A stretch of 64,000 bases of DNA from NCBI RefSeq assembly GCF_024502345.1, contig NZ_JALDNN010000001.1, one strand, 5' to 3'. The number at the start of each line of letters is the position of its first letter. The stretch's first letter is position 1. Both the position numbers and the translations under genes were made by a program. Positions 5,890 through 56,530 of this stretch are shown here, piece by piece. The DNA is from Escherichia coli. GTDB lineage: Bacteria > Pseudomonadota > Gammaproteobacteria > Enterobacterales > Enterobacteriaceae. Below the pieces are notes generated by a model. The model saw only the letters and a program-made list of their open reading frames with translations, was not told where the DNA came from and did no database searches.

Positions 5890-5969
5890 CCGGAAAGCGG
5901 GTCACAGATCTCGCTTCGTACCTAGCAGGCCTATTGACGCTGTTGCTTTTTCAACCTAGAGTAAAGGAA

Positions 5970-6112
5970 CAAGGGTAAGGGAGGATTTCTCCCCCCTCTG
6001 ATGAGTTGTTAGTAAGTCGGGAAACTTAACAGTAACAACACAACCAGTATGATGACGAGCTTCATCATAACCCTTTCCTTCTATAAGGCCCCTTCCTCGG
6101 GAGGGGCTTTCC
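5970..6112 (+). ncRNA. sibD: Sib-family antisense sRNA antitoxin (SibD/E-like), copy 1; ends approximate
   Basis: Putative promoter TTGACG-17bp-TAGAGT at 5934-5962; fully overlaps the antisense ibs ORF; 3' hairpin GCCCCUU...GAGGGGC + UUUCCCGUUUC at 6088-6118; ~143 nt fits known Sib length; D/E naming tentative. Confidence 0.6.
6009..6068 (-). CDS. ibsD: Ibs-family type I toxin, 19-aa hydrophobic peptide MMKLVIILVVLLLLSFPTY
   Basis: 60-nt minus-strand ORF translated by hand; close match to the Ibs toxin family (cf. IbsC MMRLVIILIVLLLISFSAY); D/E naming tentative. Confidence 0.65.
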   Translation of the reverse strand: MMKLVIILVVLLLLSFPTY

Positions 6113-6345
6113 CGTTTCAGCCCCTTGCTGACTCCCCGATTGTTGATGAGCGCCGGACCCCGCGCAACGCTTTCCCTGAAGCAGTTTTGCCTTCCCCGAG
6201 CGGTCACGCAAAACGCTGCAACGTCCTGAGCATTTGCACCTTTTAGCGGAACGCAGATATAAAAAATCCCCGGCTTTTTGGGCCAGGGATATGTGTTAAT
6301 GAAACCTTCTTGACGCTGATTTTTTTTCAACCTAAAGTAAAGGAA

Positions 6346-6488
6346 CAAGGGTAAGGGAGGATTTCTCCCCCCTCTGATTGGCTGTTAATAAGCTGCGAAA
6401 CTTACGAGTAACAACACAATCAGTATGATGACGAGCTTCATCATAACCCTTTCCTTATACAAGGCCCCTTCTTCGGGAGGGGCTTTCC
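6346..6488 (+). ncRNA. sibE: Sib-family antisense sRNA antitoxin (SibD/E-like), copy 2; ends approximate
   Basis: Promoter TTGACG-17bp-TAAAGT at 6310-6338; overlaps second ibs ORF; same 3' hairpin as copy 1. Confidence 0.6.
6385..6444 (-). CDS. ibsE: Ibs-family type I toxin, 19-aa peptide MMKLVIILIVLLLVSFAAY
   Basis: 60-nt minus-strand ORF in second repeat unit; differs from copy 1 at 4 residues. Confidence 0.65.
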   Translation of the reverse strand: MMKLVIILIVLLLVSFAAY

Positions 6489-9000: not shown

Positions 9001-9268
9001 ATGTCACTCCAATGTCCATTTAGTGACGCAATATTCACTTTGGGATAGTTTCCTTGCTTACATTTATCTTTGTTAATAATAACACACGTTAGAGAAGTTC
9101 TGGAAGAGAAAGTCTTTTAATATGGTTTTTTATTTTTCACTAAAAAGTGTGATCGGGGACAATATATTTACGCACGTTATGTTTAAAGGCACTACACTGA
9201 TTGGGGAATACTGAAATCAGAAAAAGCATATGGCCTTAAAAGGTATGCGATAACCGGAGGATGTGCTT

Positions 9269-9469
9269 ATGGATCATAGTCTTAATTCTTTAAATAATTT
9301 CGATTTCCTGGCGCGTAGTTTTGCCAGAATGCACGCAGAAGGTCGCCCGGTCGATATTCTGGCCGTTACTGGTAACATGGATGAAGAACATAGAACCTGG
9401 TTTTGCGCACGTTATGCCTGGTATTGCCAACAGATGATGCAAACCAGAGAACTTGAATTAGAACACTGA
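9269..9469 (+). CDS. glgS: Surface composition regulator GlgS, 66 aa
   Basis: Recognised sequence [28 protein letters not shown]...; track ORF starts 2 codons earlier (9263). Confidence 0.88.
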
Positions 9470-9474
9470 TATTA

Positions 9475-9497
9475 CGGGCCGTCTGGCCCGTTTTTGT
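9475..9497 (+). terminator. Terminator hairpin between convergent glgS and yqiC
   Basis: CGGGCC-GTCT-GGCCCG followed by TTTTTGTGTT on + strand. Confidence 0.6.
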
Positions 9498-9503
9498 GTT
9501 GCT

Positions 9504-9803
9504 TTATTCTGCTTTATCAATAGGCGGGATAGCCGGAGGAGATTGAAGATCTGCTACCGAATTATTGCGCGCCTCCAGTTCACTGATGCGCTGCTCCAGT
9601 AACGCCAGTTTTTCACGAGTCCGTAACAGGACTTGCGTCTGTACGTCGAATTCTTCGCGGCTCACCAGATCGAGACGCGTCAGCTGCGCTTGTAGGGTTT
9701 GGCGGATTTTTTTCTCCACATCTTCCCCGAACTCCCTGATTCCTTTAGGCATTGATTCGTGAACCTGGCGAGCGATTTGCTCAATTTTTTTCGGGTCAAT
9801 CAT
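9504..9803 (-). CDS. ubiK: Ubiquinone biosynthesis accessory factor UbiK (YqiC), ~99 aa
   Basis: Track ORF 9504..9863 trimmed to [16 protein letters not shown]... start; coiled-coil BMFP-type protein. Confidence 0.8.
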
Positions 9804-9925
9804 TGTAGTTTCCCTGTACTGATAGGTGTTGAGTGCCATTGTAGTGCGATAAGGGTAAGTCATAAACCAGAATTATGTGAAGCTATGCGTTGCTGCCGCT
9901 AATCATTAGCGTTATAGTGAATCCG

Positions 9926-10176
9926 CTTATTCTCAGGGCGGGGCGAAATTCCCCACCGGCGGTAAATCAACTCAGTTGAAAGCCCGCGAGCGCTTTGGGT
10001 GCGAACTCAAAGGACAGCAGATCCGGTGTAATTCCGGGGCCGACGGTTAGAGTCCGGATGGGAGAGAGTAACGATTCTGTCGGGCATGGACCCGCTCACG
10101 TTATTTTGGCTATATGCCGCCACTCCTAAGACTGCCCTGATTCTGGTAACCATAATTTTAGTGAGGTTTTTTTACC
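9926..10176 (+). promoter_or_regulatory. FMN riboswitch (RFN element) in the ribB 5' leader
   Basis: Conserved RFN core CAGGGCGGGGCGAAAUUCCCCACCGGCGGUAAA ... AUCCGGUGUAAUUCCGGGGCCGACGGUUAGAGUCCGGAUGGGAGAGAGUAACG; putative -10 TATAGT at 9913-9918. Confidence 0.88.
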
Positions 10177-10830
10177 ATGAATCAGACGCTACTTTCCTCT
10201 TTTGGTACGCCTTTCGAACGTGTTGAAAATGCACTGGCTGCGCTGCGTGAAGGACGCGGTGTAATGGTGCTTGATGATGAAGACCGTGAAAACGAAGGTG
10301 ATATGATCTTCCCGGCAGAAACCATGACCGTTGAGCAGATGGCGCTGACCATTCGCCACGGTAGCGGTATTGTTTGCCTGTGCATTACTGAAGATCGCCG
10401 TAAACAACTCGATCTGCCAATGATGGTAGAAAATAACACCAGCGCCTATGGCACCGGTTTTACCGTGACCATTGAAGCGGCTGAAGGTGTGACTACCGGT
10501 GTTTCTGCCGCTGACCGTATTACGACCGTTCGCGCAGCGATTGCCGATGGCGCAAAACCTTCTGATCTGAATCGCCCGGGCCACGTTTTCCCACTCCGCG
10601 CTCAGGCTGGTGGTGTACTGACGCGTGGCGGTCATACTGAAGCAACTATTGATCTAATGACGCTGGCAGGCTTTAAACCGGCTGGTGTGCTGTGTGAGCT
10701 GACTAATGACGATGGCACGATGGCGCGTGCACCAGAGTGCATTGAGTTTGCCAATAAACACAATATGGCACTCGTGACTATTGAAGACCTGGTGGCATAC
10801 CGTCAGGCACATGAGCGTAAAGCCAGCTGA
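10177..10830 (+). CDS. ribB: 3,4-dihydroxy-2-butanone 4-phosphate synthase, 217 aa
   Basis: 217-aa ORF; recognised sequence; follows FMN riboswitch. Confidence 0.93.
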
Positions 10831-10862
10831 AAACCGCTGCTTAATTTACTGCCTTAATCAAG

Positions 10863-10897
10863 AAACCGAAGTTGTAGCAGGCTTCGGTTTTTATTTT
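10863..10897 (+). terminator. ribB rho-independent terminator
   Basis: AACCGAAG...CTTCGGTT hairpin followed by TTTATTTTT. Confidence 0.6.
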
Positions 10898-11091
10898 TCC
10901 CTGCTATGCAAGATGTTAATTCCGCTTCTCTTTCTATGAGAAAATTTCATTAATATCAGGCATTCTTTTTCATTATGATCAAAATCATATAATTGTTCCG
11001 TTATTATGCGACCATATGAATATATCCGAAAAAGGATATGTGAAATTTATGCGCTAAATGTTTAGTATTGTTAAATATTAAGGGTAAAAGG

Positions 11092-11262
11092 ATGTTTATC
11101 GCCTGGTACTGGATTGTATTGATTGCTCTTGTTGTGGTGGGTTATTTCCTGCATTTGAAACGTTATTGTCGGGCGTTTCGCCAGGACAGAGACGCACTGC
11201 TTGAAGCGCGGAACAAATACTTAAACAGTACGAGAGAAGAGACAGCCGAAAAGGTAGAATAA
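11092..11262 (+). CDS. Small single-pass membrane protein, 56 aa (MFIAWYWIVLIALVVVGYFL...)
   Basis: Track ORF starts at TTG 11068; internal ATG 11092 has a better SD (AAGGGTAAAAGG); hydrophobic helix then basic/charged tail; strong terminator immediately downstream. Confidence 0.5.
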   Translation: MFIAWYWIVLIALVVVGYFLHLKRYCRAFRQDRDALLEARNKYLNSTREETAEKVE

Positions 11263-11319: not shown

Positions 11320-12093
11320 TTAACCAATTCCCGCCGTTTGTAGCAGCACTAAACTGAATCCCATCACTGACATTCCACATAGTACGCCATAGCTGGGGTT
11401 ATTATTAGGGTCAATCTCTTTGGCGAGCGGCATTAATTCATCAACCGAGAGCGCCACCATAATTCCTGCAACCGCCGCCATGATTGCCGCCATGACCACC
11501 GGGGAAATCATGCTACCGAGGATTAACCACGCCAGCACACCACCAAGAATTTCTGCCAATCCAGAAATCCCCGCCCACAGAATTGCCGTGCGTTTAGAAC
11601 CCGTTGCTGCATAAACCGGGCCTGCAACCGCCAGACCTTCAGGAATATTGTGCAACGCGACGGCCAGTGCGATGCCAAATCCCAGCTCCAGGTTGCTGCT
11701 CGCCGTGACAAAGGTGGCAATCCCTTCCGGGAAGTTATGCAGACTGATGCCGAGAGTGAGCAGAATGGCTGTGCGCTTGATCGATTTTGGCAACGGCTGC
11801 ACCGATTTTTGCATTAAATCCTGCGGATGCGCATGTGGCAACATGCGGTCCAGGCCAAAATAGCCAAGCAGACCGAAGATAAACATTCCATAACCCAACA
11901 CAGGCGACATTCCTTCAGCTGCTAGTGCGGCAGGAAGCATTTCCATTAATGAGATGAGCAACATGATCCCCGCCGCAAATCCTAGCGAAAACGCCAGTAA
12001 GCGGTTCGAGGGTTTTTGCCCGAGAACGCCGAGAAACGCGCCAATAAACGTGGCTGCCCCCGCCAGTATGGTCAGAATGAGAGGTACTGACAT
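11320..12093 (-). CDS. zupT: Zinc transporter ZupT (ZIP family), 257 aa
   Basis: Track ORF 271 aa trimmed to [19 protein letters not shown]...; multi-TM ZIP protein. Confidence 0.9.
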
Positions 12094-12208
12094 CGACAAC
12101 TCCTTATAAATCTTCACCTTCAGGCAGATCGTCAAAATAACTGATGATCATCATCATTGTTATCCGGGTTCTTACTCCGCCGAACAAGCGTATTGTGAGG
12201 ATATCAAA

Positions 12209-39499: not shown

Positions 39500-39603
39500 A
39501 CGTTCCTCCTTTATATGAACTCACCGGAGCAGGCTCCGGTGAGGTGTTGTGAACTTAAGTCTGGACGAAATGCCCGAAAACGAAAGTTTGAGGCGTAAAA
39601 AGC

Positions 39604-45313: not shown

Positions 45314-45525
45314 GCCTGATGCGCTACGCTCATCAGGCCTACAAAATCTATTGCAACATGTTGAATCTTCGTGCGTTTGTAGGCCGGATAAGGCGTTCAC
45401 GACGCATCCGGCATTAGGTGCTCAATGCCTGATGCGCTACGCTTATCAGGCCTACAAAATCTATTGCAACATGTTGAATCTTCATGCGTTTGTAGGCGGA
45501 TAAGGCGTTTTCGCCACATCAGGTA
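45314..45525. repeat. BIME: two tandem ~113-bp units each containing a pair of inverted REP elements
   Basis: GCCTGATGCGCTACGCTTATCAGGCCTACA and TGTAGGCCGGATAAGGCG...CATCCGGCA motifs, duplicated at 45314 and 45427. Confidence 0.85.
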
Positions 45526-56414: not shown

Positions 56415-56530
56415 AGCTTTCGTAGGCCTGATAAGACGCGGCAGCGTCGCATCAGGCATTGTGCTCGATTGCCGGATGCGGCGTGAACGCCTTATCCGGC
56501 CTGGATGGCTTGCTGCGACGAACGCTAACC
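56415..56530. repeat. REP elements between hybG and yghU
   Basis: GTAGGCCTGATAAGACGCG...CGCATCAGGC and TGCCGGATGCGGCGTGAACGCCTTATCCGGCCT. Confidence 0.8.

Follow-up and report, generated by a model that had tools for sequence, protein, structure and literature searches.

The region 9925-10176 (+) is, as our analysis indicates with near certainty, the 5' leader of the Escherichia coli ribB mRNA, an FMN riboswitch that controls ribB through a sequestering stem-loop and in a Rho-dependent manner. It lies in a window of 64,000 nucleotides, i.e. the whole stretch of DNA that was analysed. The element is the already known E. coli ribB FMN riboswitch, and we add nothing new to it. Its value here is that of a positive control: a structured RNA was recognised from the sequence, with its boundaries placed within one base. 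Biologically, the riboswitch serves E. coli as the sensor for feedback on riboflavin synthesis, and it is a model of how riboswitches act co-transcriptionally and in concert with Rho. It has been called a prime antibiotic target, and ribocil-C has been used as its ligand (PMC10085680).

The mechanism described below draws on our own computations for the aptamer match, the gene context, the agreement with K-12, the presence of the helices and their conservation, and the lack of an intrinsic terminator. FMN binding, the RNase H evidence for switching, the pause sites and the Rho dependence were taken from published papers, and the exact base pairs given for anti-P1 are putative.

The FMN aptamer

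We scanned both strands of the window against 4227 Rfam families and found the FMN family (RF00050) at 9925-10073 (+). The match covers the full model (1-138 of 138) with 120.9 bits against a gathering score of 66.2, and an E-value of 1.1e-27. A permissive local scan returned the same match (E 2.5e-29) and nothing else notable in the region. No second FMN riboswitch match was found in the whole 64-kb window, and to our knowledge the ribB element is the sole FMN riboswitch in E. coli. SroG has no Rfam family, and only the FMN model matches on the leader. A hit of AdoCbl-II inside the FMN aptamer (22.3 bits, gathering score 36.5) is below threshold and was judged to be due to chance.

All six helices of the aptamer were placed by the cmscan alignment to RF00050: P1 (9927-9934/10064-10071), P2 (9941-9943/9951-9953), P3 (9959-9962/9984-9987), P4 (9990-9992/10016-10018, with an extension at 9993-10000/10005-10012), P5 (10022-10026/10034-10038) and P6 (10044-10046/10054-10056), all on the + strand. 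The only non-standard pair in the aptamer is G68-A92 at the base of P4. This pair is the single weak point that could speak for a chance likeness, or for a decayed and non-functional remnant of a riboswitch, at 9925-10073. We give practically no credence to such an explanation: an E-value of 1e-27 was reached across the full RF00050 model, the matched sequence hardly varies among 80 species and shows compensatory changes at its variable places, and it is the sequence for which a nanomolar FMN response has been measured.

A reading of the same DNA from the sequence only, made before the present analysis, had proposed an FMN riboswitch controlling ribB and had named the RF00050 scan as the check, with the lack of a significant match as its refutation. 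Our results agree with this sequence-only reading, since the full-length match is significant, lies on the same strand directly 5' of the DHBP-synthase gene, and is the K-12 element. Its coordinates, 9926-10176, are right at the end, because ribB begins at 10177 and 10176 is hence the last base of the leader, and late by one base at the start, where the true 5' end is 9925.

Transcription unit and start site

The ribB gene (10177-10830, +) was identified as an open reading frame with the Pfam domain DHBP_synthase (PF00926, E 6e-84), in line with the RefSeq annotation. Its leader is 252 nt long (9925-10176) and the ATG follows directly. The aptamer end is separated from this ATG by 103 nt on the same strand (10074-10176), which agrees well with the ~100-nt expression platform claimed from the sequence; it contains the Shine-Dalgarno motif GAGG (10163-10166).

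The transcription start (+1) is the G at 9925, which corresponds to the NC_000913.3 coordinate 3184718. Published 5'-RACE data put the start of ribB transcription at -252 relative to the ATG and assign to it the -10 box tagcGTTATAGTgaat (PMC2760140 supplement). Reading the sequence with this start site in hand, we find a likely sigma-70 promoter at 9891-9918 (+), consisting of a -35 box TTGCTG (9891-9896), a 16-nt spacer and a -10 box TATAGT (9913-9918), the latter in the extended form GTTATAGT (9911-9918). The consensus scan for promoters did not report the promoter of the ribB leader, because its -35 box matches at only three of six positions; it was hence placed from the published start site. 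The choice of 9925 as +1 also fits the numbering of Eschbach et al. 2024 (PMC11571811), in which C175, G176 and U181 become 10099, 10100 and 10105 and the two published strands of the anti*-P1 helix fall on 10065-10073 and 10099-10107. The AUG is then at +253, and the published 282-nt construct ends after ten codons.

We considered and rejected three open reading frames as possible leader peptides, 9995-10129 (+), 10086-10226 (+) and 10007-10153 (-). None of them starts near a ribosome-binding site, and the RNA structure explains the region.

A terminator-like hairpin with a T-run and a 13-pair stem was found by the consensus scan after ribB (10861-10892, +) and closes the transcription unit. 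The ribB stop codon and this hairpin are spanned by a match below threshold to the enterobacterial sRNA STnc240 (10829-10899, +; 29.1 bits against a gathering score of 55, E 0.07), which could be an RNA derived from the 3'-UTR or a chance match. Further downstream, a small open reading frame (11068-11262, +) is the annotated small protein YqiD, whose first residues suggest a membrane protein, and it is followed by zupT on the opposite strand (11320-12135, as an open reading frame).

Identity to K-12 and distribution in E. coli

The 252-nt leader and the 148 nt upstream of it are 100% identical to K-12 MG1655 (NC_000913.3 3184467-3184718, complement, for the leader), and therefore the published K-12 experiments apply directly to this leader. 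The identical 400 nt before the ribB ATG include the leader, the promoter, the whole 130-bp intergenic region between ubiK and ribB and 18 nt at the start of the ubiK coding sequence. When 9777-10830 was compared with NC_000913.3, 12 bases were found to differ in the 654-nt coding sequence of ribB.

The segment 9800-10300 was found in 5425 of 5426 complete E. coli genomes, at 99% identity or above in nearly all of them. One complete genome has a second copy, and one of the 5428 matching places is on a plasmid; parts of the glgS region occur at 30 plasmid places. The window matches O157:H7 strains at 100%.

The sequence-only reading had also held that an annotation of coding sequences only would miss the leader. 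This is true by definition, and it fits the NC_000913.3 record, where the ribB leader bears no feature, be it a riboswitch or sroG. It does not apply in general, as the RefSeq genomes annotated by PGAP carry a 'riboswitch / FMN riboswitch' feature between ubiK and ribB.

Upstream, glgS (9263-9469, +) and ubiK (9504-9794, -) are separated by only 35 bp, which include a hairpin terminator (9474-9491). The two genes are set apart in K-12 by the ygiL-yqiGHI fimbrial cluster, which comes with an IS2; this cluster is absent here. The contiguous glgS-ubiK junction is common to 2062 of the 5426 complete E. coli genomes.

The expression platform

The sequestering stem-loop of the FMN-bound OFF state covers 10137-10185 (+), based on predicted folds, conservation and published RNase H protection. 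Its 5' arm CUGAUUCUGGUAA (10137-10149) pairs with UUACCA-U-GAAUCAG (10172-10185) in 13 base pairs with U10178 bulged. All predicted folds of the platform contain this stem, and the start codon (10177-10179) lies within it. The Shine-Dalgarno motif is located in an inner hairpin (10154-10159/10163-10168). The start codon is thus occluded and the Shine-Dalgarno hairpin is enclosed, and there is an alternative pairing between 9933-9941 and 10132-10140, as expected of a translational (sequester-type) platform.

The inner hairpin is followed by a run of seven U (10167-10173, +), whose 3' end is the second pause of RNA polymerase (+247-249, i.e. 10171-10173; PMC11571811). A small hairpin, a U-run and a pause at its end, in a leader with an aptamer of the same family, are also what one might expect of a transcription-attenuating leader of the Bacillus subtilis ribD type, in which FMN lets an intrinsic terminator replace an antiterminator. 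Such a platform is very improbable here: the terminator scan is empty on the + strand of 9925-10176, and the hairpin before the U-run has six A-U and G-U pairs and no G-C pair at all. The structure check proposed earlier, for terminator/antiterminator or sequester helices, thus came out in favour of the sequester and against an intrinsic terminator/antiterminator.

In the ligand-free state, the anti*-P1 helix (10065-10107, +) is formed by AGAGUAACG (10065-10073, +141-149) and CGUUAUUUU (10099-10107, +175-183), and encloses a hairpin of CGGG with CCCG (10081-10084/10091-10094). This helix, which also appears in the predicted fold, has been published together with mutants at C175, G176 and U181 (PMC11571811). 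The first pause region (+175 and +181 in the same paper) maps to 10099-10105 (+) with +1 at 9925.

The second alternative helix, anti-P1, probably forms between UCAGGGCGG (9933-9941) and the complementary CUGCCCUGA (10132-10140); we infer these exact pairs from the complementarity and from the description in PMC11571811. In the 5' arm of the sequester, this core overlaps with no more than 4 nt. An extension between UUAUU (9927-9931) and GGUAA (10145-10149) may also form; it is weak, and would fill the entire 5' arm. Freeing of the ribosome-binding site would need this weak extension.

A 30-nt block of the platform, CUCCUAAGACUGCCCUGAUUCUGGUAACCA (10123-10152, +199-228, + strand), stands out in the alignment of 80 leaders, with all its columns either invariant or at least 90% conserved. 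It includes the 3' side of the putative anti-P1 helix (10132-10140) and that of its possible extension (10145-10149). Its first six nucleotides (10123-10128) may be a ligand-free partner of 10059-10064 in the aptamer core, which would extend anti*-P1 into a three-way junction. Such a junction is not described in the accessible part of the text of PMC11571811.

Conservation among related leaders

We aligned the ribB leaders of the 80 closest relatives (80 species), all of them Enterobacteriaceae except for one Pantoea. The identity to the window across these leaders is 63-99% for the platform and 71-100% for the aptamer, the lowest aptamer values being due to an insertion in the P3 loop that misaligned two leaders in the first pass. 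The variation in the platform is concentrated in +150-198, with little or none of it in +199-228 and +248-266.

The FMN-bound (OFF) structure is well kept in the alignment, with 96.8% of its cells paired versus 41-56% when the partners are slid. In the extension of P4, six of the eight pairs have changed on both sides in a compensatory manner. In P1 and P5 the variation is one-sided (U-A/U-G), and within Enterobacteriaceae P2, P3 and P6 never vary, so that these close relatives are informative only for P4 among the aptamer helices. The sequester has 13 base pairs, of which 12 are invariant; all are paired in every leader (100%), the lone variable pair changing from A-U to G-U.

The ligand-free helices show a similar picture. 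The putative anti-P1 pairing (+9-17/+208-216) is paired in 100% of the cases and anti*-P1 in 95.3%, both with one-sided variation only. The possible pairing of the aptamer core with the conserved block (+135-140/+199-204) is paired at 99.4%, with four of its six pairs invariant and rare mispairs in the other two. Both sides have changed in all four pairs of the hairpin enclosed by anti*-P1 (+157-160/+167-170), which is paired at 98.1%. A216G, the single substitution in the segment shared by the sequester and the putative anti-P1, was found in five species and keeps both the U9-G216 and the G216-U258 pairs, which is what a double constraint on this position predicts.

Among the 80 relatives, invariance extends over the sequester, anti-P1 and most of anti*-P1. 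Support for the switching helices thus comes from their extreme conservation and from published probing; the relatives are too closely related to provide covariation.

One further hairpin in the E. coli fold (10108-10110/10116-10118) was rejected, being only 25-34% paired in the alignment, which is poor there. The relatives have a different hairpin of the form GCCGC...GCGGC or a deletion in this region.

Some Enterobacteriaceae carry insertions in the apical loop of P3, located about 45-105 nt after the leader start in the shorter forms. Inserts of ~55 nt occur in Citrobacter sedlakii, Kluyvera genomosp. 1 and Salmonella enterica arizonae/diarizonae (loci L012, L043, L016 and L017). Inserts of ~125 nt were found in Pseudocitrobacter (approximately L020:872-1003) and Kluyvera genomosp. 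3 (approximately L037:873-1003), whose leaders are 376-377 nt long. We take the ~125-nt insert to be an ERIC/IRU-like element. At the gathering threshold the Rfam FMN model finds the leaders with 55-nt inserts (106-110 bits) and gives no match on the two leaders with the full insert. An annotation based on Rfam would therefore miss the riboswitches in Pseudocitrobacter and Kluyvera genomosp. 3.

Thermodynamic folding

The minimum free energy (MFE) structure of the leader has no P1, and its energy is no better than that of shuffled sequences (z = -0.61). The sequester coexists with anti*-P1 in this structure. The energies are -69.9 kcal/mol with the aptamer and the sequester forced, -82.7 kcal/mol for the anti-P1 state and -88.1 kcal/mol for the MFE. 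When successive prefixes of the leader were folded, the helices did not appear in the published order. Nearest-neighbour folding fails to recover the switch and was given no weight either way, because the tertiary energy, the ligand energy and the kinetics are not modelled.

Switching and Rho-dependent termination

In the presence of FMN, both +215-227 and the P1 3' strand are shielded from RNase H, the Kswitch values being 176 nM for the P1 probe and 206 nM for the sequester probe (PMC11571811). The same study reports a Kswitch of ~23 nM with the polymerase at the +175 pause and a loss of affinity at +247. Sensing is therefore co-transcriptional and its window is closed by the second pause (+247-249), which forms the 3' border of the FMN-sensing window (PMC11571811).

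It has been published that FMN blocks the initiation of ribB translation and lowers the mRNA level through Rho. A ChIP study with the rho R66S mutant gave ribB a termination score of 3.1 (PMC5499598), and ribocil-dependent Rho termination at ribB was seen in single-molecule assays (PMC10085680). Direct exposure of a rut site was proposed for ribB, in contrast to thiM, where the effect would be indirect, via lost translation (PMC5499598). In its composition the leader has a mild excess of C over G at +171-220, with 12 C versus 5 G in +191-220.

The mechanism that best explains these data is as follows. Transcription starts at G9925, and the first 149 nt fold into the six-helix FMN aptamer. When FMN binds with the polymerase located between about +150 and the +247 pause, P1 is locked, and the 5' part of the aptamer can then not pair with 10132-10149, leaving this strand to form the sequester with 10172-10185. 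The sequester buries the start codon and encloses the hairpin with the Shine-Dalgarno motif, and the initiation of translation is blocked. Rho can then reach the untranslated nascent RNA and terminates transcription in the leader or in early ribB. A short leader RNA is left, plausibly SroG, if this RNA is indeed linked to Rho termination. Without FMN, the 3' strand of P1 pairs with 10099-10107 in anti*-P1 and the 5' strand of the aptamer probably with 10132-10140, possibly beyond, in anti-P1; the ribosome-binding site is open and ribB is expressed.

The leader-derived RNA SroG

In older K-12 records a 149-nt sroG is presumably annotated on the span 9925-10073. The earlier suggestion that this leader gives rise to the sroG sRNA in K-12 is in accord with the literature: SroG is stated to derive from the ribB 5' leader, its function being called unknown (PMC7456131), and its start site has been mapped and it has been described as part of the ribB operon (PMC2760140). 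SroG also gave gel shifts in vitro with the mRNAs of cdsA, cysJ, yfbR, yncD, mepM, potA and pgl (PMC6172242).

It could hence be argued that the main product of this region is a trans-acting SroG (about +1 to +149) pairing with other mRNAs, and that the control of ribB is only a part of its role, as a stable RNA from the leader has been detected (PMC7456131, PMC2760140) and binds several mRNAs in vitro (PMC6172242). We consider this unlikely. The cited literature gives no in vivo target or phenotype, a stable folded aptamer is expected as a by-product of premature termination, and FMN binding fully explains the near-invariance of the aptamer. Moreover, a role in trans would add to the riboswitch function rather than replace it, and the control of ribB by FMN remains our preferred reading.

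A related speculation, to which we likewise assign a low probability, is that the SroG RNA left by premature termination or by processing of the leader (about +1 to +149, perhaps longer) might have a dual function, in that it would sense FMN in cis, accumulate at high FMN and act in trans on mRNAs including those of the flavoprotein gene cysJ and of the metal-uptake genes yncD and fecE. If true, the flavin status of the cell would be coupled to other pathways.

Other RNA matches in the window

The Rfam scan also gave two tandem Sib antitoxin RNAs (RF00113) beside yqiK, at 5934-6083 and 6310-6459 (+) with 140 and 151 bits. These are presumably sibD and sibE, and ibs toxin genes would be expected on the opposite strand. 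Matches to the ES173 sRNA (99 bits) and to naRNA4 (61-90 bits) were found at 39538-39601 (-), 45382-45452 (+) and 56425-56501 (both strands). Since the last of these sites is hit in either orientation, it may be a palindromic element.

Comparison with known systems

The closest known system is the K-12 ribB leader, which has the same start site, aptamer, anti*-P1 helix, sequestering stem, pause sites and downstream gene. There is no difference in the leader itself; the differences are the 12 in the ribB coding sequence and the upstream ubiK, which abuts glgS here.

The B. subtilis ribD (ribDEAHT) riboswitch shares the aptamer family, the ligand and the OFF logic on riboflavin biosynthesis with the E. 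coli element, but it uses an intrinsic terminator and antiterminator, whereas E. coli ribB combines sequestering of the ribosome-binding site with Rho-dependent termination. In the latter respect the ribB leader resembles the Mg2+ leader of Salmonella mgtA and the TPP riboswitches of E. coli thiM and thiC, all of which show ligand-dependent Rho termination in the leader or the early open reading frame. In these systems, as in ribB, the window for co-transcriptional sensing is set by pauses close to the start codon. They differ from ribB in the aptamer class and in the ligand.
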